20,000 bases of DNA from an uncultured virus (IMG/VR IMGVR_UViG_3300035670_000196) (taxonomy: Duplodnaviria > Heunggongvirae > Uroviricota > Caudoviricetes). The notes beneath the pieces were generated by a model that was not told the origin of the DNA, did not search any database, and saw only the letters and a program-made list of their open reading frames with translations. The stretch is taken from the IMG/VR virus record IMGVR_UViG_3300035670_000196; one strand, 5' to 3'. Below are positions 1,727 to 19,314 of the stretch, piece by piece; the first letter of the stretch is position 1, and the number at the start of each line of letters is the position of its first letter. The position numbers and the translations under genes were made by a program.

Positions 1727-1915
1727 ATGACGAATCCACCGCCACCACCGCCCCAGCAGTCGCCACAGTCGCAACGCCCTCGCGTTGTGGAGGTGTTGTT
1801 GGCGCATATTCAAAAGATAGAACGGCGACTTGATGGGCTGCACGATCGCATGATTGAGATGAGCGTTGACGCGGCAAAGCATAGGGAGGCGTCTGGTCAC
1901 TTAATAGCAAAATAA
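1727..1915 (+). CDS. Small hypothetical protein (Pro-rich N-terminus, short coiled coil)
   Basis: 62-aa ORF MTNPPPPPPQQ...LLAHIQKIERRLDGLHDRMIEM, divergent from 1216..1593. Confidence 0.5.
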   Translation: MTNPPPPPPQQSPQSQRPRVVEVLLAHIQKIERRLDGLHDRMIEMSVDAAKHREASGHLIAK

Positions 1916-1952
1916 CGGTATAATTCGGGGCGAATAGTAATTTGCCAGAATT

Positions 1953-2597
1953 ATGTATATCACCCCGAAGGAAGCACAAAAAAAATACGGGTATCACCCC
2001 AAGACTTTAGCCAATTGGGCGGACGACGGGAAAATACAGTTCACTAAATCACCTGGCGGACACAGGCGCTATGCGGTGGCTAGCTTAGAAGCCGTAGCAA
2101 GCGATCCAACAAAAGAGATTATCTGCTATGTCAGAGTTTCAACTAGATCCCAGAAAGACGATTTGCAAAATCAGCTTGATTATGTCAGTAGCCACTACCC
2201 ACAGGCTGAGTGTATTACCGACTACGGCAGCGGACTTAATTTTAAGCGTAAACGATTCCTGAAGCTAATGGAACGAGTTTCAAGGCGGGAAGTCGCGACG
2301 ATAGTCGTTGCTCACAAAGATCGCCTTTGCCGCTTCGGCTTCGATTTTGTCGAATGGTTCTGTCAATTGAACGGTTGTCAAATAAAGGTTCTGAACAATA
2401 CCTACAAGCCACCGCATCAAGAGCTTATGGAAGATTTCATGGCGATAATGCACTGCTTTAGCAGCAAGCTGTATTTTTTGAGGCGATATGAAAAAGAAAT
2501 TCGGAATGAATCGGAAAAAGCGGAACAATGTGATATAATATGTCTATCCACTGAAGAAGGTCGAACTGATGGGGCTCAAGCGGAAGAAGGGATTTAA
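1953..2597 (+). CDS. tnpA: IS607-family transposase (MerR-type HTH + serine recombinase)
   Basis: N-terminal TPKEAQKKYGYHPKTLANWADDGKI...TKSPGGHRRY, catalytic YVRVST, then GSGLNFKRK, AHKDRLCRFGF and ELMEDFMAIMHCFS. TATAAT at 1919-1924 upstream. Confidence 0.95.
   Translation: MYITPKEAQKKYGYHPKTLANWADDGKIQFTKSPGGHRRYAVASLEAVASDPTKEIICYVRVSTRSQKDDLQNQLDYVSSHYPQAECITDYGSGLNFKRKRFLKLMERVSRREVATIVVAHKDRLCRFGFDFVEWFCQLNGCQIKVLNNTYKPPHQELMEDFMAIMHCFSSKLYFLRRYEKEIRNESEKAEQCDIICLSTEEGRTDGAQAEEGI
2531..2539 (+). promoter_or_regulatory. Putative extended -10 promoter for tnpB, internal to tnpA
   Basis: TGATATAAT, a perfect TGnTATAAT, about 30 nt upstream of the tnpB ATG. Confidence 0.5.
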
Positions 2598-3876
2598 TAT
2601 AGCGACTAAGTCCGTGAAGGCTAAATTGGTTCGGGAGGGCTTTGACCTGACTGAGACGAAAAGAGCTTTCAATGAAGTCGTTGAATTCTATTTTCTGCTT
2701 GTCTCAACCCGCCCAGAAGGGATAGATATTCCCGTCTCTGATGATGGCGGATGGCGGTTTTACGAGATCCTGACGCAGGATAATGGTGAATTTCCTTTGC
2801 CATTTGCGGGTTTTCCGTCGTCCCTAAAGCGAGCTGCTATACGTCGTGCAATCGGCGCTTATAGCGCTTGGGATACGGCTTACCAGAAGTGGATAAATCG
2901 CCCTGAGAAGTACAAACATCATCGTCCCCCTGTTCAACCAAGAACGTTTTCCTTTTCCCCTCAGATGGATAAAGGAATGTGGAAAGACGATGACGGAGAA
3001 TCTATCGTACTAAAAATATTGATGGGTTCCCAATGGAAGTGGATTAAATTCCGATACCATTCTCGGGAGATTGGCGACGATTGGGTAAAAGGATCTCCTA
3101 GCCTCATCGTCAAGGGTAATAACGTTAGCATCGTTTTCCCTTTAGAGCGGTATGTCCCTGCTACTGGCGGATTGAAAACCGTTCTCAAAAAAGATATTGT
3201 TCGAGTCGCGTCAGTGGACGTTGACTTGGACGATCATCTTGCTATTGTTTCGATTCTAGAAAGCAAAGCTAGCGGAGAAGTGAGAGAACTGGCACGTCAC
3301 TTTATCTCCACACCTCTGGTAAAGCTTAGGAAGCGCGATTTAGGTCGAGTTGCAATTAAGATGTCACAGACAAAAATCGTTTGTGAAGGCTTTGCTTCTA
3401 ACCTATGGACTAAACTTCATAACCGTGAAGTTGAAATGGGTAGAGCAGCCGCTAGGCAAGTTGTAGATTTATCCGTTGGGTATGGTTGCGAAGTCATCGC
3501 CTTTGAGCACTTGACGAACCTTAAACCAGCCAAAGGTAAATATTCAAAGCGTTCAAACAAAAAACGAGCTTATTGGCTTAAGTCTCGTCTTTTTAGCGAA
3601 ACCAATAGAGTCGCCTACAACGAGTTTGGCATCTTGACAACCCGTGTTTCTCCACGAAATACGTCTCGACTAGACCCTTGGGGTAACGCGGTAAACCGTG
3701 GCTCCACACCTACGGCAGAAGGCTATCATGCTGGTGCTGATTGGGTGAACGGGCCACGCGGTTACAAGGCCCATTCTGGGATCAACGCAGCGAGAAATAT
3801 TGGGTTGAAAGCGATAGCAAGACACAGCACTAACCCGCCGACGCTTTACTTAGGTAAAGAAAAACCAGTCGGATAA
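2569..3876 (+). CDS. tnpB: TnpB-like RNA-guided RuvC protein with atypical active site
   Basis: Follows IS607 tnpA. RuvC-I VASVDVD (D217), RuvC-II VIAFEHL (E313), VSPRNTSR, and RuvC-III HSGINAARNIG with G404 where D is normally found. No CxxC zinc finger. Confidence 0.85.
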   Translation: MGLKRKKGFNIATKSVKAKLVREGFDLTETKRAFNEVVEFYFLLVSTRPEGIDIPVSDDGGWRFYEILTQDNGEFPLPFAGFPSSLKRAAIRRAIGAYSAWDTAYQKWINRPEKYKHHRPPVQPRTFSFSPQMDKGMWKDDDGESIVLKILMGSQWKWIKFRYHSREIGDDWVKGSPSLIVKGNNVSIVFPLERYVPATGGLKTVLKKDIVRVASVDVDLDDHLAIVSILESKASGEVRELARHFISTPLVKLRKRDLGRVAIKMSQTKIVCEGFASNLWTKLHNREVEMGRAAARQVVDLSVGYGCEVIAFEHLTNLKPAKGKYSKRSNKKRAYWLKSRLFSETNRVAYNEFGILTTRVSPRNTSRLDPWGNAVNRGSTPTAEGYHAGADWVNGPRGYKAHSGINAARNIGLKAIARHSTNPPTLYLGKEKPVG

Positions 3877-4157
3877 AAGCGGGGAAAGCCTTTAGCAGTA
3901 ATGCTTTGGGTCTGGGTATTGGCTAGTAAAACGTTCCCAGGCGTTATCAATATCCTAGCAGGCTTGGGGAAACTGCCTAACCCTTTCCTACCATTTACGG
4001 ATCTAGCGGTAGAGCCTACGGCTCAATAGCTGCTTTATCTCGCTTACAGAGGAGAGGAGAAAGTGAACCGTTTTCGGAAAGGTCGCGTTTTATTCCGACT
4101 CATTACGTTTTACGGGTTCCTCGTAATGACCGCTCAGCTATCCCACACTATTCACAA
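3877..4157 (+). ncRNA. Putative TnpB omegaRNA (scaffold to ~4137 plus 3' guide)
   Basis: Noncoding region just 3' of tnpB with several hairpins (GCA-GTAA-TGC, GAGCC-TAC-GGCTC, TCATTACG 4100-4107 / CGTAATGA 4122-4129) and a possible long-range pair AGCGGT 4005-4010 / ACCGCT 4129-4134. Confidence 0.6.
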
Positions 4158-4196
4158 TACATTCAGTCGGCTGTGACACTTATTTTTATTGGCACA
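4138..4196 (-). promoter_or_regulatory. Repeated promoter/operator motif, copy B (truncated at the -10 element)
   Basis: TGTGACACTTATTTTTATTGGCACA at 4172-4196 is identical to 5242-5266. CTATCCCACAC at 4138-4148 is at the same offset. The downstream part of the motif is absent. Confidence 0.75.
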
Positions 4197-4210
4197 CTGC
4201 CCAAAATCAG

Positions 4211-4319
4211 GGTTTTCACAAGTTTTCACACAGCTCAAAAAGTTTTCACATCGCGAACGCTATATATACCAATACTTTTAAGCCCTGCGTGTGAAAACTT
4301 TTGAAAACTTGTGAAAACT
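4211..4319. repeat. Inverted array of 10-bp repeats (AGTTTTCACA x3, facing TGTGAAAACT x3)
   Basis: Units at 4211, 4221 and 4241, with inverted units at 4290, 4300 and 4310, around an AT-rich core. Confidence 0.85.
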
Positions 4320-8776: not shown

Positions 8777-10690
8777 TTGTCCGTAGTTAATAGGAACAGG
8801 AGCAAGCCAGTGGTATTAGCTAGCAGCCGAAGATTAGCGGTTGATTCAACGATAGAAGACCAATACAAAATTGTCAAGGCAGCATTACTCGCGATCGCCG
8901 GTGTTTGTGATGGCGCAGCTACCAACGACGGGGCGGGGTTTAACGCCATGGATGCCTATCGTGGGCGGTATTTAGCCGACACTGCCCAATGCGACGAACT
9001 GAGCCCCACCGAACTGTATGAGGCATGGAAGCTATGTCGTAAGTACTGGCGGCAACTGAAAAAATCGGGGATTGTACTGCCGAAGACTTGGCGGAATGAA
9101 TACCGGCTGGAAGGAATGACCGTACACAACTTGAGCAAAGGTAGCAGCTATAACCTCACATGGATCGGGGATGAGGATCTAGCCTGCGAGTGTGAGGCGT
9201 ATAAGGCAGGGCACGAGTGCGGGCACATCAAGTTTGCAATCCCGTTGTTCGATAAGCCTTACGCTGAGTTTGACGATGTAGAGGATGTGATGGAGTCAGC
9301 CCCACCGCCAGCCCCCACGACAACCGATGTAGAACTGCTACCGGGCATCACGGCCACGGCAGATCAGGCTAAGGCGCTGGATGAACTGCTGGGATTTGTC
9401 CAAGACCGCACGGCAACTATTCATTTATTAACGGGCTATTCGGGTACAGGAAAAAGTACCCTAGTGCAAGCCCTTGTCAAGCGACTAAGGGATCAGGGTG
9501 ACCATCGTTCCATCGTGTTCACCGCCCCGACGAACAAGGCCGCTGGGGTGTTACGATCGATGGTCAGTCGATGGGGGTTGGGGATCGATTGCATCACCTG
9601 CGCCAAATTGCTGGGGTTAAGACCGAAAATTGACTTCGAGACGGGGGGGCAAATCTTTGTCAAAGACTATGGACAGGAATCGACAGCTCAAAGCTATGAC
9701 CTGATCGTCGTTGACGAATGCTCGATGGTCAATGTCGATCTTTGCTTTTATCTCACAGAGGAAGCCAACCTAAGGACTCAGCTCCTATTTATGGGTGACC
9801 CAGCCCAGCTGCCCCCCGTCAACGAAGCTATCAGCCCTACCTTTACCGAAGTCGAATCTCAATCCCATTTAGGCGAGGTCAAACGGTACAGCGGCCCTAT
9901 CGCTGTCCTTGCTGACGACATCCGCCGTAACCTAAAGCGAAAAGGGGAGCCCCTATGGGAATCGGATCACACCCCCGCCAAAACCTCTGGGGTATGGGTG
10001 ATGGATGATAAGCAATGGAACGCTGCACTAATTAAGGCGTTCCGTAGCGATGCGTATAAGGCAAACCCCGACTATGTAAGGGCTCTAGCCTGGACAAATC
10101 GCCGTGTTGATGGGCTAAACCGATCGGTGCGGGCTGCAGTCGTTGGAGCCAAGGCACCTCGATTCGTTAGGGGGGAGCGGCTAATTGCAAACGACCCTTA
10201 TTTCATTGAGGGCGAGGGCGATCGCAAAATTGCTGTGTTCCAATCCTCGGACGAAATGGAGATCCTATACGAGCCAACCGAAGGCAAGATCGGAGATTGG
10301 GCGGTATGGTTCTTGTCCGTGCTGGTATTTAGCTCGGGTGAGCAAACGACGATCCCTGTACTGCACGAGTCATCGGTTAAGGAATTTAAGGCGGCACAAG
10401 CCGAACTCGCTAAGCGGGCTAAGGACGGCGAAAAGCAGCTGTGGCAAACATGGCATGATAACAACGGCATGTTTGCTAATGTCACATACGCCTATGCCAT
10501 CACCGTTCACAAAAGCCAAGGCTCGACCTTTGACAACGTGTTTGTCGACATTGGCGACATTCGCGCTAATAAAACCGTAAACCAGATCGAGATTCCCGGC
10601 ATCCCTGGACTGCAATCCGTTTACGAGCGGAATCAACTGCAGTACGTCGCTTGCACTAGGGCGGCACAGCGACTATTTATTCTGGATTAA
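8777..10690 (+). CDS. SF1B (Dda/RecD-like) DNA helicase with N-terminal DGxGFN domain and SWIM zinc finger
   Basis: Walker A GYSGTGKS, TAPTNKAA, VVDECSM, GDPAQLPPV, YAITVHKSQGSTF, YVACTRA; SWIM CECEAYKAGHECGH. The true start may be GTG 8810 (AGGAG RBS). Confidence 0.92.
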   Translation: MSVVNRNRSKPVVLASSRRLAVDSTIEDQYKIVKAALLAIAGVCDGAATNDGAGFNAMDAYRGRYLADTAQCDELSPTELYEAWKLCRKYWRQLKKSGIVLPKTWRNEYRLEGMTVHNLSKGSSYNLTWIGDEDLACECEAYKAGHECGHIKFAIPLFDKPYAEFDDVEDVMESAPPPAPTTTDVELLPGITATADQAKALDELLGFVQDRTATIHLLTGYSGTGKSTLVQALVKRLRDQGDHRSIVFTAPTNKAAGVLRSMVSRWGLGIDCITCAKLLGLRPKIDFETGGQIFVKDYGQESTAQSYDLIVVDECSMVNVDLCFYLTEEANLRTQLLFMGDPAQLPPVNEAISPTFTEVESQSHLGEVKRYSGPIAVLADDIRRNLKRKGEPLWESDHTPAKTSGVWVMDDKQWNAALIKAFRSDAYKANPDYVRALAWTNRRVDGLNRSVRAAVVGAKAPRFVRGERLIANDPYFIEGEGDRKIAVFQSSDEMEILYEPTEGKIGDWAVWFLSVLVFSSGEQTTIPVLHESSVKEFKAAQAELAKRAKDGEKQLWQTWHDNNGMFANVTYAYAITVHKSQGSTFDNVFVDIGDIRANKTVNQIEIPGIPGLQSVYERNQLQYVACTRAAQRLFILD

Positions 10691-10761: not shown

Positions 10762-11412
10762 ATGAAACTACTTGATTTATTTTGTGGTGCTGGTGGTGCC
10801 GCCGAGGGGTACCGTCGATCAGGGTTTGACGTCACCGGCGTAGATATTTCGCCGCAACCACGCTACCCGTTCATTTTTCATCAATGCGATTGGCGCGAGT
10901 ACTTTGATCAGCATTGGTACGAGTACGACGTAATTCACGCATCCCCCCCGTGTCAGGGATACAGCGTATCCCGGCATATCCACAAAGGCTCTAAAGCCCC
11001 GTTGCTGATCGACACTGTTCGAGAAGCGCTAAAAGCCACCGACAAGCCATATATAATCGAAAATGTGGCAGGGGCTAGAAAACACATGATTGCGCCAATC
11101 ACCTTGCGCGGCAATATGTTTGGGCTTCGAGTAATTCGGGATAGATTGTTTGAAAGCAACATTTTGCTGCTGGCACCCAAATTAATTCCCGCTAAGGGCG
11201 GGACTAACAGTCATCGCGGCATGAGTACCGGAGGCGAATATATCTGTGTTGCAGGGAATAATTTTTATGTTGAGGAAGCAAAAGCGGCGATGGGTATCGA
11301 TTGGATGATCGGCAAAGAACTGGCTCAAGCCATTCCTCCCGCGTACACCGAATGGATCGGCAGTCAGGTGAAAAATCAACTCCGCATTAAAGCTGCTGTG
11401 CCAATAAAATAA
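10762..11412 (+). CDS. Orphan C5 cytosine DNA methyltransferase (short phage/plasmid type)
   Basis: Motif I LDLFCGAGG, motif IV ASPPCQ, motif VI IENV, C-terminal AQAIPPAYT. Confidence 0.92.
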   Translation: MKLLDLFCGAGGAAEGYRRSGFDVTGVDISPQPRYPFIFHQCDWREYFDQHWYEYDVIHASPPCQGYSVSRHIHKGSKAPLLIDTVREALKATDKPYIIENVAGARKHMIAPITLRGNMFGLRVIRDRLFESNILLLAPKLIPAKGGTNSHRGMSTGGEYICVAGNNFYVEEAKAAMGIDWMIGKELAQAIPPAYTEWIGSQVKNQLRIKAAVPIK

Positions 11413-12069: not shown

Positions 12070-15000
12070 ATGATTTCTGCAAGTCTCCACGTGGATCAAA
12101 GCGTATTTAGCGGAAAGTTTGATTACAATGCGCAGTGCCCGGTTTGTGATAAAAAGGGCTGCTCAGTCCGGGAAGGCGGCGGCGTCCATTGCACGACACA
12201 CCGCAGCGGCAATAAGGGCGAAACCCTAAACGGGTATGAGTTTGTAGGGGAAGATCGCAGCGGGTTAGGACTGTGGCGGCCCTATGTCGAAAAAGGTAAT
12301 CGCCAAACATCGACATACCGGCTGCAGACGACGGCAAGGACGCTAGAACCAGTCGCACAAATAGACTTAGCCAAACGGGATAGCCAGTTGCGGGCATGGG
12401 CTGAGGAATCGCCTATTACTGGCGAGCAACGACTATTCCTGAAAAACCGAGGGGTTAGCCGGGAGCAGGTGATGCAAGCGGCCAACGACGAAGCTATTTT
12501 TTGGAATATCCAATACGGGGAAGACGGATTTGACAGCACAGGGCTACCCGGTAACTGGACTGAGGACGGCAAATATCAAGGCGTAGAGGGCCTTGCCATC
12601 GCTTGCCGCCAGCGACTAGAACCTAATGGCCCATGGCATATCCTCGGTGCTCAGATCCGCCCCAGCAAGATCAGAGATGGCGGAGGTAAATACTTATGGC
12701 TCAGCAGAGAGGAAGCTTCAGCACGGATCAGCCAATGGGGCGAGTTACCGATCACCGTCCATGAAACCACCGGCACAACGGGGCACTTGACTCTATGCGA
12801 GGGAACGCTCAAACCGTGGCTAATTGCCCAGAGAGCCGACATCCATAGCATTGACTTAGGCGTAGCGATCGTTGGCTGTGCTGGTTCGGCGTGGGCATCA
12901 ACATCATGGACTCAGATCGAGCATCAATGCACTAAAGTGTACGGGGTAAAAGATATTCACTTAGCCCTTGACGCTGGCGCGGTTCAAAACCGTAACGTTT
13001 GGGGTGGAGTCAGACAGCTGGCCCAACGATGCAAAAGAGCAGGCTTAACTTTAAAAATAATCTGGTATGGCCAACTCGAAAAAACTAACGGTGACCTTGA
13101 CGAACTGACGGAAGTCACTCCATACCAGTTGCTAACCGTTAACGAAGTCGAGGCCCAATTCTGCCAGCCTGACGTAATCCCGGCGTCAGCGCTGCTACTC
13201 AAGCCGTCACCTGGGTTTGTCGACGATTACGGGTATCTGCCCGATCACGCTGACATCCTATTACCGGCGATCTCAAAAACGCGATTGACAGCCATCCGCG
13301 CTAACAAAGGGACTGGAAAAACCCAGCTAATTAAAAAACTGGTAACTCAAGCTATCGAGCGAAAACAGCGTGCAATTATCTTCACCCACCGCCTCGCTCT
13401 TGGCGCTGCCCAAGGTGCACTGCTGGGCCTGCCCGTCAAAACTGAGGTCAGAGAATACGGACGGGGCGAAGGGTTTGTTATTACCGTTGACTCCGCTCAC
13501 CCTGGCTCTGGGATGCGGTACAGCGCTGACCATGACCTACAACACGATGGGGGGGGCACTTTAGTCATCATTGACGAGTGCGATCAGGTTTTCGATCACA
13601 TCGCCCACGGCAAGACAGAAATTAAGCGGCACCGCCAAGCCGTGATTGACGAAATCAGCGAAACCCTAGCAGGTGCCCGCAACGTTGTCCTGCTCAGTGC
13701 CGACATTACCGACTGTCACGTTGCCCTAACTCAACAGGCAATGGGCATCACCGACTCGCTAAACATCGTCAATACCACTACACGTAAACTAGGCAATGTA
13801 ACGGTTCATACAAACCCGTTCTCCGTACGATTTGAAGCCGAGCAAGCACTAGAACGGAATGAACGCATTCTAATAAAAGTCAGCGGCCAAAAATCAGACT
13901 CAAATCACGGTACGTCTGCACTGCATGCTTACCTGAAAGCATTATACCCAGAGAAGAAGGGTGTCATTTTTGACGGAAACACACTTAAAGATCCGTCTAA
14001 TCCTGACACTTTTATTAATGGTATAAATGTACTGCAGTGGCTCAGCCATCCTGATCCCGAAGAAAGGCTACGGCGACAAGAGGAGTATTTTGCTCAGTAC
14101 GATTGGGTGATTTTTAACAACGCTTGTGGTACCGGAGTATCGTTTGAGACCCCCCTATTCCACGGTTTTTATCAGATCGAAACTGGGGTAGGGTCAATCC
14201 GTGACGCGGCCCAGGCGACGGCAAGGCTAAGACCTCATTTTTACGAAGACGCCGAGGGTAACCGTCAGCCGCTTCAGCGCCACATCTACTGTGCCCCGAT
14301 TGGCCTTCCTCAGCTGCGATACGGCAATGGGGCGACGGCTCCCAATAAACTTGCAGCGGGCGAAGATAAGGCATGGGAAAAGCTCGTAAGCCAAATACAG
14401 CAAGTCGGGGGGGCTGATTGGTTGCCATCTTCACCGCTCGAATACTCGTCACCACGGGCTCAAGCGTGGTTGGGGTATGCCATTAACCGGGCTGCTGAAT
14501 TTAACGCTGAATCGCTCAACTATGCCCAGGAATTTTGGAAGCAATTACAAGTCGAGGGCTACAGCCTCGGCGACTATAACGGCGATTGGAATCAGATAGG
14601 CGACAGTGAGCAGAAGGCCTATAAAGCCGGGTGCACATCGGCAAGGGATCTGCTACACAGCAAGGCATTAGAACAGATAGCTGCTGAGCCCATGGATGGG
14701 GCAGATGTGGCGAAACTAGCCCAGCAACGGGAGTTGACCCCAAAGGAGCATAGGCAGCTAAAAAAGGGCCGAACCATGGAACGATACGGTCTCGACGAAG
14801 AGACCGTAGATGTCGCCGTCCTTGACGCTGAGCACAACGGCATTTATCACAAACTGATGCTGCGATACCTAGCTGAACAGCCCAAAGCCGTGGCTCAGGA
14901 ACGCGATAAGGTGACAGCATGGCATGAACTAAACGAAGGGTCTCCTTGGGGGCGTGATCTTGCCAAGCGGGCTTATTCACCGAGACTGGCTCTCCTAAGA

Positions 15001-15951
15001 GAACTAGGGGCGATTGCCTTACTAGAATCGGCTAAGAACGGAGAAAAACTTTACAGTGCCCACCCTGATGTTTTGGCGGTAGCAGCTGCAGCCTTGAAGC
15101 GACGGGACGATGTTAAAGACATCCTAGGGCTGACGGTTGGGGTTGAGTCTTATAACAAACGAACGGCTCAAATGGAAATCAAGGTTGATCGCCCGATCGT
15201 AGTCGCTCAGAATTTATTTGAGTTGTTAGGGTACGGACTGTCCCGAATTAAAGAACGGGTTCGGAATGAGCAAGGTAAGCGGCATTGGCAGTTTGAGCTG
15301 ACCGATAGCAAACCGGCGGCGATTGACTGGGTAAAATTCGGGGAAATTCAGGAGAAAATTATGAAAGAACGGGCTGAAAAAGTGGATGGATCACCGGTCA
15401 ATTTAGTGCTGAGAGAGGCCAAAAATGACCCGCTGCCTACTAACAGTGAAAATGAGCTAGAACCTAATGATGACAAGGGTTTCGATGAAAAACAGGCCGG
15501 GACACTAACCTCCATAGATCTAATAGAAACCGAGTTAGTAGGCAGTAAAAATGGCGATACCCGCATCCCTGATTCTGGGGGGGCTGCTGCTGGGGCTGAT
15601 CTGAGGGTCGGTGACCGGGTGATTTACACGGGTGAGGCTCCAAATAGTGCTAGATCTGCCATTCTCCGAGCCATAATGCAGCCGTTACCAGGGGTGATTG
15701 TCTACCAGTTATCGGCTACCGAGGACGGGGCTGCGTGGGGAGCGAGACAGCATGAGGTGTTACTGGTGGATACTGACGAACCATTGGCAATACAGGTGAT
15801 GCGGATGATGCAAGCGGTACGGACGCCCGACGACTGGTCTAAGCTTGGCCGTCAGTACGATGCTGAGACATGGCAAGCTGCTTGGTCTGAGCTAATTGTG
15901 GAGGATGAACAAAAGGCTTTGTTTATCCAGCAAATGATGATGGCGGCTTGA
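12070..15951 (+). CDS. Large replication protein (CyRepA1-like: Zn finger + TOPRIM/DUF3854-like primase + SF2-like origin-binding helicase)
   Basis: N-terminal CPVCDKKGC...VHC; GAQIRP, GKYLWLS, LCEGTLKP, LALDAG, GDLDE (TOPRIM-like); ANKGTGKT, THRLALG, IIDECDQ, LLSADI, GTGVSF, QATARLR (helicase motifs). Confidence 0.85.
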   Translation: MISASLHVDQSVFSGKFDYNAQCPVCDKKGCSVREGGGVHCTTHRSGNKGETLNGYEFVGEDRSGLGLWRPYVEKGNRQTSTYRLQTTARTLEPVAQIDLAKRDSQLRAWAEESPITGEQRLFLKNRGVSREQVMQAANDEAIFWNIQYGEDGFDSTGLPGNWTEDGKYQGVEGLAIACRQRLEPNGPWHILGAQIRPSKIRDGGGKYLWLSREEASARISQWGELPITVHETTGTTGHLTLCEGTLKPWLIAQRADIHSIDLGVAIVGCAGSAWASTSWTQIEHQCTKVYGVKDIHLALDAGAVQNRNVWGGVRQLAQRCKRAGLTLKIIWYGQLEKTNGDLDELTEVTPYQLLTVNEVEAQFCQPDVIPASALLLKPSPGFVDDYGYLPDHADILLPAISKTRLTAIRANKGTGKTQLIKKLVTQAIERKQRAIIFTHRLALGAAQGALLGLPVKTEVREYGRGEGFVITVDSAHPGSGMRYSADHDLQHDGGGTLVIIDECDQVFDHIAHGKTEIKRHRQAVIDEISETLAGARNVVLLSADITDCHVALTQQAMGITDSLNIVNTTTRKLGNVTVHTNPFSVRFEAEQALERNERILIKVSGQKSDSNHGTSALHAYLKALYPEKKGVIFDGNTLKDPSNPDTFINGINVLQWLSHPDPEERLRRQEEYFAQYDWVIFNNACGTGVSFETPLFHGFYQIETGVGSIRDAAQATARLRPHFYEDAEGNRQPLQRHIYCAPIGLPQLRYGNGATAPNKLAAGEDKAWEKLVSQIQQVGGADWLPSSPLEYSSPRAQAWLGYAINRAAEFNAESLNYAQEFWKQLQVEGYSLGDYNGDWNQIGDSEQKAYKAGCTSARDLLHSKALEQIAAEPMDGADVAKLAQQRELTPKEHRQLKKGRTMERYGLDEETVDVAVLDAEHNGIYHKLMLRYLAEQPKAVAQERDKVTAWHELNEGSPWGRDLAKRAYSPRLALLRELGAIALLESAKNGEKLYSAHPDVLAVAAAALKRRDDVKDILGLTVGVESYNKRTAQMEIKVDRPIVVAQNLFELLGYGLSRIKERVRNEQGKRHWQFELTDSKPAAIDWVKFGEIQEKIMKERAEKVDGSPVNLVLREAKNDPLPTNSENELEPNDDKGFDEKQAGTLTSIDLIETELVGSKNGDTRIPDSGGAAAGADLRVGDRVIYTGEAPNSARSAILRAIMQPLPGVIVYQLSATEDGAAWGARQHEVLLVDTDEPLAIQVMRMMQAVRTPDDWSKLGRQYDAETWQAAWSELIVEDEQKALFIQQMMMAA

Positions 15952-17912: not shown

Positions 17913-18619
17913 TGCAGCCACTACGAGTAACCGCCCACTTAGCCAATAAATTGGCGGTGAGTGATGATTGGTCGCCGTCGCTTGATGCACTCCTAATTAA
18001 GCTACTACTGGATGAGCGGGGATTATCCAGTAGTAACCCGATGCTGGAAGATGTCGTTCGAAACCAGCCTGTGATTGACGCCAATATGCCGATCTACAAA
18101 GGTGAAATTAAAGGGGAATGGTACTGGCAGACCTCAAGCCCTTGTTATTTGTGGGATGCCGATGAAGTGGAAACCATCTACAAACGATGGGATCAACAAG
18201 AGCGTAACTTGAATTGGCAAGGCAAGCGGCGCAACTGGAGCACATCCGAGAATAATACAAAGTCCTGGACAATCCTTATTTCGGAGCGATCGACCCCGCG
18301 TATCGACTGGTATTGCATCGGTGATGCGCTGGAGATCCAGCGGTTGTTAACTCTGTCTGATAGATTGGCTAAAAAACGTCGGACACAGGTCTATCGATGG
18401 GACGTCGAGGCAATTGATCAAGATTGGCATTTATGGCGTGATCAAGAAATAATGCGGCCAATGCCAGTGGATTTAATTGATACGCCACCTCATGATTTTG
18501 CAATTCGGCGATGGGCATGGCGGCCACCGACGCATTTGCCTGAGAATGTGGCTAAGTGCCTGATGCCTGTAACAACAGCAAAGCGAGTTAAATCAGTTTA
18601 TGTGTGGGGAACGGAGTGA
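17912..18619 (+). CDS. csf3: Type IV CRISPR Cas5-like subunit Csf3
   Basis: MQPLRVTAHL...LDALL, WYCIGDALEIQRLL, LAKKRR, MRPMP, RPP; TGATG coupling to csf2. Confidence 0.8.
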   Translation: MQPLRVTAHLANKLAVSDDWSPSLDALLIKLLLDERGLSSSNPMLEDVVRNQPVIDANMPIYKGEIKGEWYWQTSSPCYLWDADEVETIYKRWDQQERNLNWQGKRRNWSTSENNTKSWTILISERSTPRIDWYCIGDALEIQRLLTLSDRLAKKRRTQVYRWDVEAIDQDWHLWRDQEIMRPMPVDLIDTPPHDFAIRRWAWRPPTHLPENVAKCLMPVTTAKRVKSVYVWGTE

Positions 18620-19314
18620 TGGATCTATTGGAGCGCGAGGCGTTTTCGGTTTATGCGCAGTTGCCAAAATTTAAGCGCAAAGTTAATCAGGCTTTAGTTG
18701 TAATTCGTGAAGCATTAAAAATTGGGCCTGCCTACGTTGCTGTTAGTTGGGGAAAAGATTCGGTGGTGATGCTGCACTTGTGTCAGCAGGTGCAGCCGGA
18801 TATTTTGGCAATCAGCTTTAGCCATCCAGAACGAAGCATGATTTCTAATTATGAAGAGGTAATCGATCAATATCGCCAACGATTTGGCCTGAATTTAAAA
18901 GATATTGCACTAGCTGGCGACCATGTCCCGGCCAAAGTCGAACAGGCTAAGCTTTGGGATACTTGGCCTGTTGGTTTTATTGGATTGAGAAAAGAAGAGT
19001 GCGATCGGAGATCTATGGCATTAATTAAGTATGGATTGCTGCATCAATACCAGTCTGGGAGTAGATCTACTAGTTGGCGTTGCTGCCCGGTTGGTTGGTT
19101 TGGTTGGCGTGATATTTGGGCTTACATTTGTGCAAATAACCTGCCGTACTTGTCAATTTACGATCAGCTTTCCAGAGACCGAGGAAGAACTACAGATCAT
19201 TTATCAAAAACTATGGACAAAGCATGGCAGCAACGCCGATTTGAAGAGATCAAGTTGGTTGCACCAGAATATGCAAAATATTTGCAGGAGAATCATGCAG
19301 AGAATTTCCAGTGA
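18619..19314 (+). CDS. CysH/PAPS-reductase-like PP-loop protein (type IV-B associated)
   Basis: YVAVSWGKDSVVMLHL, FIGLRKEECDRR, PVGWFGWRDIWAYICANNLPYLSIYD; TGATG coupling to csf3. Confidence 0.9.
   Translation: MDLLEREAFSVYAQLPKFKRKVNQALVVIREALKIGPAYVAVSWGKDSVVMLHLCQQVQPDILAISFSHPERSMISNYEEVIDQYRQRFGLNLKDIALAGDHVPAKVEQAKLWDTWPVGFIGLRKEECDRRSMALIKYGLLHQYQSGSRSTSWRCCPVGWFGWRDIWAYICANNLPYLSIYDQLSRDRGRTTDHLSKTMDKAWQQRRFEEIKLVAPEYAKYLQENHAENFQ

Follow-up and report, generated by a model that had tools for sequence, protein, structure and literature searches.

Several kinds of TnpB protein with a changed RuvC nuclease site have been described. In the text of Altae-Tran et al. (2023; PMC10691335), six large TnpB branches have an altered RuvC-III motif, the zinc finger is reported as lost in some large branches, and conserved rearrangements are argued to mean that activity is kept. 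Wiegand et al. (2023, bioRxiv) report that single-residue 'inactivations' are often spurious, with the catalytic residue found at an alternate position, and for this reason demanded two or more mutations for the TnpB-like dead relatives called TldR. The pro-Fanzors are cyanobacterial IS607 TnpBs ancestral to the Fanzors (Yoon et al., 2023; PMC10711439). Here we analyse a stretch of 20,000 nucleotides (nt) from an uncultured virus (IMG/VR record IMGVR_UViG_3300035670_000196), which as a whole is referred to as the window. It carries an IS607-family element with tnpA and a tnpB-like gene for a protein of 435 amino acids (aa), in which Gly404 stands at the position of the RuvC-III aspartate and an additional acidic residue, Asp219, follows the RuvC-I Asp217 at a distance of two residues. 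Judged from sequence, the chances appear about even that D217, D219 and E313 form a rearranged, still active RuvC site, and this is the reading which we favour.

Residues were compared in two alignments, A1 consisting of 34 close family sequences and A2 of 84 sequences including outgroups. The gene and its motifs are as follows.

2569–3876, + strand: tnpB-like open reading frame (ORF), 435 aa, intact, with a TnpB/Cas12f fold according to ORF listing, hidden Markov model (HMM), AlphaFold2 and Foldseek.
3217–3225, + strand: RuvC-I residues D217-V218-D219; D217 is the canonical first carboxylate, D219 the proposed relocated third carboxylate.
3505–3507, + strand: RuvC-II E313, which occupies the canonical position, aligns to AsCas12f E324 and does not vary in either A1 or A2.
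3661–3768, + strand: former zinc-finger (TNB) region, residues 365–400, without Cys knuckles (TSRLDPWG ... NGPRG); short strands, confident in the model.
3772–3798, + strand: RuvC-III motif H402-S403-G404-I-N-A-A-R-N410, in which Gly replaces the catalytic Asp.

RuvC-I of the protein reads VDVDLD and the RuvC-III motif reads AHSGINAARNI. The codons are GAC for D217 (3217–3219), GAG for E313 (3505–3507) and GGG for G404 (3778–3780), the last being two changes away from GAT/GAC. An earlier reading of the window, here called the original prediction, had pointed out the intact ORF, the presence of D217 and E313, the distance of the glycine codon from an Asp codon and the replacement of both zinc knuckles by TSRLDPWG and NGPRG. 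All of this was confirmed from the sequence.

A word-indexed search detected 176 relatives of the protein, and all named ones are cyanobacterial. An exhaustive search of 1.84 billion representatives yielded 314 relatives at E ≤ 0.001, while a metagenome scan for close relatives gave a single locus with 59% identity. The closest protein (P0002) is 77% identical. In A1, G404 is nearly invariant, and D217, D219, E313, S403, N406, R409 and N410 are invariant, among a total of 62 invariant columns. The RuvC-III consensus of this close family is [HN]-S-G-x-N-A-A-R-N, and paired CxxC knuckles are present in no member. Across the 84 sequences of A2, just 14 columns are invariant, and D217 and E313 belong to these. 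We also collected 62 loci from cyanobacterial genomes (L001–L062), in 57 of which the RuvC-III motif is readable. All 57 have Gly at the position of the RuvC-III Asp, at identities down to ~36%, and no CxxC was found in the C-terminal half of the protein in any of the 62 loci. The tnpB ORFs are intact across this Gly404 clade. In pairwise comparisons of family loci, the ratio of non-synonymous to synonymous substitution rates (dN/dS; NG86 method) ranges over 0.05–0.40 with 0.10 as the median (61 pairs with dS of 0.05–2). The next relatives, at 34–41% identity, are from Ktedonobacteria, other Chloroflexota and Bacillota; they have the motif G-N-A-D-x-N-A with Asp, and most of them retain two CxxC knuckles. 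As Gly404 and the absence of the zinc finger are common to the whole clade, the loss is old and fixed and not a recent lesion. Close homologs which all have Asp, named beforehand as a result that would speak against the original prediction, were not found.

The residues at positions 219 and 404 are coupled, as counted over 256 aligned rows. D404 is missing from every one of the 174 rows in which position 219 is Asp (170 have Gly, two Ala, one Ser and one a gap). Where D217, E313 and D404 are all kept (65 rows), position 219 is occupied by Gly in 38 rows and by Asn in 27. The motifs of the two groups are:

Outgroups: RuvC-I V-D-L-N (D-L-N or D-x-G), RuvC-III N-A-D.
Gly404 clade: RuvC-I V-D-x-D-L-D, RuvC-III S-G.

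Between the canonical G219/D404 and the D219/G404 of the clade, a small and an acidic residue have changed places, as expected for residues which touch each other. The proposal of a nuclease-dead protein in the original prediction seems to be undermined by these data: D219 is a strong candidate for an alternative acid, invariant in the clade and absent where D404 is present, and D217 and E313 are invariant. A separate lineage, represented by P0133, has Gly at position 404 and Asn at position 219, and has a Glu next to the Gly404 position (SGE; DSGEN). This Glu may represent a second, different route to re-supply a carboxylate.

A number of distant relatives are without D217, E313 and the third Asp (P0150, P0165, P0183, P0187, P0200, P0204, P0228, P0243, P0249, P0253, P0259, P0260 and P0264; E-values from 1e-10 to 1e-25 as a set). 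Having lost all three acids, they are better candidates for a nuclease-dead protein than the clade of the window. On the alignment, their loss of D217 and E313 is what real decay looks like.

The order of events was examined in a tree from a quick IQ-TREE maximum likelihood search (80 rows, branch support by the Shimodaira–Hasegawa-like approximate likelihood ratio test, SH-aLRT, only, midpoint root). A single branch (SH-aLRT 100) separates the D-x-D group from the other rows. The sister of this group is the pair P0123 and P0133; farther out are forms with one CxxC, followed by forms with two. In P0123 the zinc finger is absent, yet N219 and D404 are kept, and CxxC is also absent from many Asp-bearing relatives. 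In this tree, and depending on its quick search and midpoint root, the catalytic swap follows the loss of the zinc finger. As the loss of the zinc finger precedes the swap and occurs in Asp-bearing relatives, it is no evidence of inactivation. Two CxxC, one CxxC, no CxxC with the Asp still present, and finally the swapped site form a series with ready-made intermediates.

An AlphaFold2 model of the 435-aa protein, built from the 84-sequence alignment, has a mean confidence (pLDDT) of 90.7 and a predicted template modelling score (pTM) of 0.84. Over residues 361–400, which include the former zinc-finger region, pLDDT values are 89–94 per 10-residue block. The top Foldseek matches of the model are AsCas12f (8j3r, E 4.5e-14), ISDra2 TnpB (8h1j, E 1.6e-10) and ISFba1 TnpB (8iaz, E 3.3e-10). 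A profile of 34 family members also aligns to AsCas12f (7wju_A, E 7.8e-4; 8j1j_A, E 3.4e-4). Counted along the profile alignment, E313 is equivalent to E324 and G404 to D401, and the CxxC knuckles of AsCas12f align to D369..G372 and to the V/S..G stretch preceding 'YKAHSG', all of which are non-Cys. According to AlphaFold2 and DSSP, position 219 sits just past strand beta-1 (210–217), and position 404 is at the start of the last helix (403–419). The Pfam score for PF07282 is 13.9 (cutoff 26.3). The precomputed annotation of all listed homologs is PF27142, the broad TnpB-like family 'Aq_aa04', which is no label specific to the Gly404 clade. The protein departs from TnpB at the third catalytic position, in the C4 zinc finger and in the score of the curated HMM; it agrees with TnpB in having a TnpB/Cas12f-type fold with a split RuvC domain and a structured right-end element RNA (reRNA) 3' of the gene, which ends at the right end of the element. 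On the basis of the model, the 435-aa protein is structurally a TnpB, and it would also function in the manner of one.

The RNA partner was defined by comparison of the regions downstream of tnpB.

3884–4122, + strand: reRNA/omegaRNA scaffold, with helices at 3888–3911, 3912–3958 and 3960–3978 and a nested set at 3982–4056; the 5' limit is provisional.
4123–4142, + strand: predicted guide, consisting of right-flank DNA, as suggested by the sharp scaffold/flank boundary and by the TnpB reRNAs described in Yoon et al. (2023); the length is assumed.

A conserved tail with AAAGTGAAC and repeats runs from the scaffold helices to position 4122. RNAalifold, applied to 28 loci anchored at the right end, predicted 44 pairs in seven helices, and 34 of these pairs show compensatory double changes. 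Of the cells of the scaffold, 94.3% are paired, compared with 36–42% when partners are slid by one to three columns, and there are 245 double-change cells compared with 23–43 after sliding. None of 500 shuffles reached the observed values. An HMM of the reRNA sequence has a match directly after tnpB in 50 of the 56 clade loci whose sequence is long enough; of the 29 loci outside its training set, 23 are matched. The misses are one truncated gene and one deep subfamily. In Rfam, no family was found at gathering score in the window, and the region 3700–4300 gave only a chance microRNA match (E 7.9). We observed the core of the scaffold (HMM positions ~102–230) also downstream of Ktedonobacteria genes which have the Asp and the zinc finger (L077, L078 and L080). 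The origin of this RNA family therefore predates the catalytic swap.

Gene and RNA are part of a transposable element with the following components.

1891–4122, + strand: complete IS607-family element of ~2.23 kb, consisting of left end (LE), tnpA, tnpB, reRNA scaffold and right end (RE); each of its two ends carries the dinucleotide TC.
1891–1952, + strand: LE, whose family consensus contains subterminal motifs like CGTAGTA / GGAGTAA, assigned by eye.
1953–2597, + strand: tnpA, coding for an IS607 serine recombinase of 214 aa with an N-terminal MerR-like helix-turn-helix (HTH) domain; overlaps tnpB by 29 nt.
2531–2539, + strand: extended -10-like sequence TGATATAAT (TG-A-TATAAT) inside the 3' end of tnpA, 30 nt ahead of the tnpB ATG.

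The tnpA product matches NF033518 (transpos_IS607; E 4.7e-52, 176.2 bits, cutoff 110) and contains the domains PF00239 (Resolvase) and PF12728 (HTH_17/MerR). The ends of the element were set from relatives with 50–61% identity. On the left, conservation begins at G-T-C (1891–1893), with GTC in 12 and GAC in one of the 13 loci with tnpA; on the right, it halts at an invariant C-T-C (4120–4122; 28 loci). Two copies in one Phormidium genome (L024 and L025) are identical within the limits of the element and unrelated outside, diverging right after CTC. Three same-genome pairs (L024/L025, L051/L052 and L058/L059) are identical from the equivalent of the left end onward and different upstream. The element has been recently mobile. 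Several characteristics of IS607 are present: a serine-recombinase TnpA with HTH, multiple copies, and ends which share the crossover dinucleotide (G-TC at LE, C-TC at RE). TC at both ends fits the IS607 dinucleotide recombination described in Yoon et al. (2023; PMC10711439).

A tnpA match upstream of tnpB is found in 31 of the 62 cyanobacterial loci; 19 of these are near full length and the others are fragments. We observed an intact tnpB behind short tnpA remnants (e.g. residues 1–64, 1–40 or 1–22) in L008, L013, L016, L017, L028, L032 and other loci. In many copies, the transposase gene has decayed while tnpB and its RNA persist. For IS607-type elements, it is common to find tnpB alone or tnpA reduced to remnants. 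The original prediction of an atypical TnpB clade still linked to tnpA is borne out by the tnpA matches in the window and in half of the loci. The term 'domesticated', which it had used, is unsupported: we find a complete IS607 element with defined ends, a scaffold running to the right end and identical copies at different sites. A complete mobile element with tnpA, LE and RE is the opposite of the TldR pattern. Of the overall interpretation, the atypical, tnpA-linked clade stands and the domestication does not, and the protein is probably not dead.

Direct TTACTACG-like repeats were seen by eye at the right end (4075–4122), and their reverse complements (CGTAGTA, GGAGTAA) at the left end (1891–1952). 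These subterminal repeats are likely to be binding sites for TnpA. By eye, no motif common to the left flanks upstream of G-TC was found in 13 loci that could serve as transposon-adjacent motif (TAM). The AG-rich left flank of the window (AGGGAGGC) is like the published TAM of ISFba1 (PMC11061315) and is absent from the other loci. The extended -10 sequence TGATATAAT is present as claimed in the original prediction. It lacks a -35 match, for which reason a scan for hexamer pairs did not report it. As a family feature it was rejected: a loose TGnTAnnnT was found within 80 nt upstream in just 7 of 49 family loci, so that it is a property of the copy in the window and no trait of the family.

We favour a rearranged site because of the exact 219/404 swap, the three invariant acids, the adjacent Glu in P0133 and the unchanged behaviour of the transposon. 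The third carboxylate would have been transferred from position 404, where the last helix begins, to the loop after beta-1 (219), two residues past D217, where the carboxylate of D219 would reach the metal site. In the DEDD 3'-5' exonucleases, which are RNase H-like, two metal ligands are provided as D-x-E on the first strand, and an i/i+2 geometry is thus feasible. As to the element, TnpA would mobilise it, and TnpB would bind the structured reRNA with the DNA flanking the right end as guide. After excision by TnpA, TnpB would cut the empty donor site, and the element would be copied back by recombination.

Several points weigh against an active site of this kind. By DSSP, D219 is in a loop and could point away from the active site. 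In the TnpBs for which Wiegand et al. (2023) give results, mutating any one of the three Asp-Glu-Asp (DED) residues abolishes cleavage, and the same is reported for single mutations of D194, E290 and D371 in ISFba1 (Ren et al., 2024; PMC11061315). The curated TnpB model NF040570 matches the protein weakly (E 8.5e-11, 41.7 bits, cutoff 100). The coupling of 219 and 404 traces to one branch and is one evolutionary event, that is retention and not repeated co-evolution, and P0133 is placed on a long branch in the quick, midpoint-rooted tree.

The effect of these single mutations is also an argument for a different explanation, namely that Gly404 abolishes cleavage and the protein is a nuclease-dead, RNA-guided DNA binder which is still transposon-borne. 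Gly replaces the RuvC-III Asp throughout the clade, binding should persist as reRNA and fold are intact, and dead relatives with new roles exist, such as TldR and, as cited in PMC10691335, Cas12k and Cas12m. The ribonucleoprotein would then do no more than bind the site which matches its flank-derived guide. It could serve the element, for instance, by tagging or shielding the empty donor site, by repression of an adjacent gene or by assisting the return of TnpA. We nevertheless consider this explanation doubtful. D217, D219 and E313 are invariant down to ~36% identity, whereas in a dead site we would expect drift of the kind seen in the distant relatives without D217 and E313. D219 also appears exactly where D404 disappears. 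The element acts as an ordinary mobile IS607, with tnpA, LE and RE and with fresh copies at unrelated sites. The right flanks of L024 and L025, the one informative pair, are unrelated and give no sign of guide-directed insertion. None of the characteristics by which TldR is recognized in the text of Wiegand et al. was found. That the clade cannot cut DNA and yet is kept on a moving IS607 under strong purifying selection, as an RNA-guided binder serving the transposon, is rather unlikely on the data at hand. If true, a non-cutting TnpB could sit on the empty donor site or label it, or could direct TnpA back there. It would then be a transposon-resident forerunner of functions of the Cas12k and TldR type, in a phylum where type V-K systems are studied, and a dead TnpB kept under strong selection by a mobile transposon would challenge the cleavage-and-homing model.

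A partly active site, with the two or three remaining carboxylates serving only reRNA processing or the nicking of one strand, is improbable. The conserved D217 and E313 indicate that metal-dependent chemistry is under selection, TnpB is reported to process its own mRNA into omegaRNA (PMC10278001), and altered substrate specificity has been suggested for rearranged sites (Altae-Tran et al., PMC10691335). However, mobility and copy pattern resemble those of ordinary TnpB elements, and the exact swap suggests that a full three-carboxylate site has been restored. A decaying TnpB gene which lost the Asp by chance and now has no function would agree with the below-threshold match to the curated TnpB model and with the many solo copies and decayed tnpA remnants adjoining family genes, but is extremely improbable and was excluded in view of the intact ORFs throughout the clade, a dN/dS of ~0.10, the 62 invariant columns of A1, the confident fold and the covarying RNA partner.

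The clade appears to be a clean case of a third carboxylate relocated from RuvC-III to a position two residues past the RuvC-I Asp. If active, the protein would be a compact RNA-guided nuclease of ~435 aa which has no zinc finger and uses a new reRNA, and the clade a natural experiment in the migration of an RNase H-like active site. Screens for 'dead' TnpB and Cas12 proteins use the three canonical positions, and the Gly404 clade would therefore be miscalled inactive.

The surroundings of the element were also analysed. Just past the right end, GTTTTCACA occurs as three direct copies (4212–4220, 4222–4230 and 4242–4250), together with the inverted TGTGAAAAC (4290–4298); this cluster looks like iterons or a cluster of binding sites. 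An ORF of 62 aa (1727–1915) with a proline- and glutamine-rich start spans the left end at 1891. Its last codons are thus element-derived, and the insertion sequence may have entered a small gene at its 3' end. Other neighbours, which look like cargo of a mobile element or plasmid, are:

403–1077, - strand: FGE-sulfatase-domain protein.
8777–10690: superfamily 1 (SF1) helicase (AAA_30/UvrD_C_2).
10762–11412: C5 DNA methylase, covering profile positions 1–117 of 324 and probably truncated.
12070–15951: 1293-aa protein with a weak match to a type IV secretion system (T4SS) coupling protein.
18604–19314: PAPS-reductase-domain protein.

Among known systems, Cas12f (AsCas12f, OsCas12f) provides the best structural and sequence-profile matches to the TnpB of the window. 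However, Cas12f retains D-E-D and the zinc finger, whereas the TnpB of the window is transposon-borne and has a single reRNA. The canonical IS607 elements ISFba1 (PMC11061315) and ISXfa1 (PMC10711439) share with our element the tnpA-tnpB-reRNA layout, the scaffold running to the right end, the guide derived from the flank and the common dinucleotide of the ends. As described there, their TnpBs have the full D-E-D triad (D194/E290/D371 in ISFba1), unlike the TnpB of the window, and their reRNA is RAGATH-18-derived, while the reRNA of the window matches no Rfam family.

TldR proteins, as described in Wiegand et al. (2023, bioRxiv), resemble the protein of the window in having a TnpB fold with an altered RuvC site, in the loss of the zinc-finger/C-terminal region and in the kept guide RNA. 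They have fewer than two conserved DED residues, no tnpA and no LE or RE, and they are linked to fliC or oppF. We reject an identity with TldR, as two of three DED residues are invariant, a candidate for the third is present, and tnpA, LE and RE are found in a mobile IS607. With the pro-Fanzors (Yoon et al., 2023; PMC10711439) the clade has in common that it is cyanobacterial and IS607-borne and that the RuvC site is rearranged. By their description, pro-Fanzors carry DPG in RuvC-I, retain both the zinc finger and the RuvC-III Asp, and have an alternative Glu located six residues ahead of the first CxxC. The protein of the window has D-V-D-L-D, P362/R363 at the position of the alternative Glu, no zinc finger and Gly404, and was rejected as a pro-Fanzor; its E313 is canonical and is located ~52 residues ahead of the former zinc finger.

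A description of the Gly404 clade or of a swap between RuvC-I +2 and RuvC-III was not found in the literature searched, including the text of PMC10691335, PMC10711439, PMC11061315 and the TldR preprint, the figures and additional data of which may cover either. The nearest described category is that of the RIIIr-# branches and the rearranged Ser-2 and Ser-5 clades, associated with a serine recombinase, of Altae-Tran et al. (2023; PMC10691335). As in the RIIIr branches, substitution of the RuvC-III Asp is conserved clade-wide, and the elements are mobile and associated with a serine recombinase; RIIIr-4 is without the C4 zinc finger, as is the clade of the window. The NADxN motif of our outgroups agrees with the 'derived' major clade of these authors. 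RIIIr-4, the one RIIIr branch which their text describes, has an exchange of Asp to His and is set apart from the clade of the window, in which the exchange of Asp to Gly is paired with a gain of Asp from Asn in RuvC-I.

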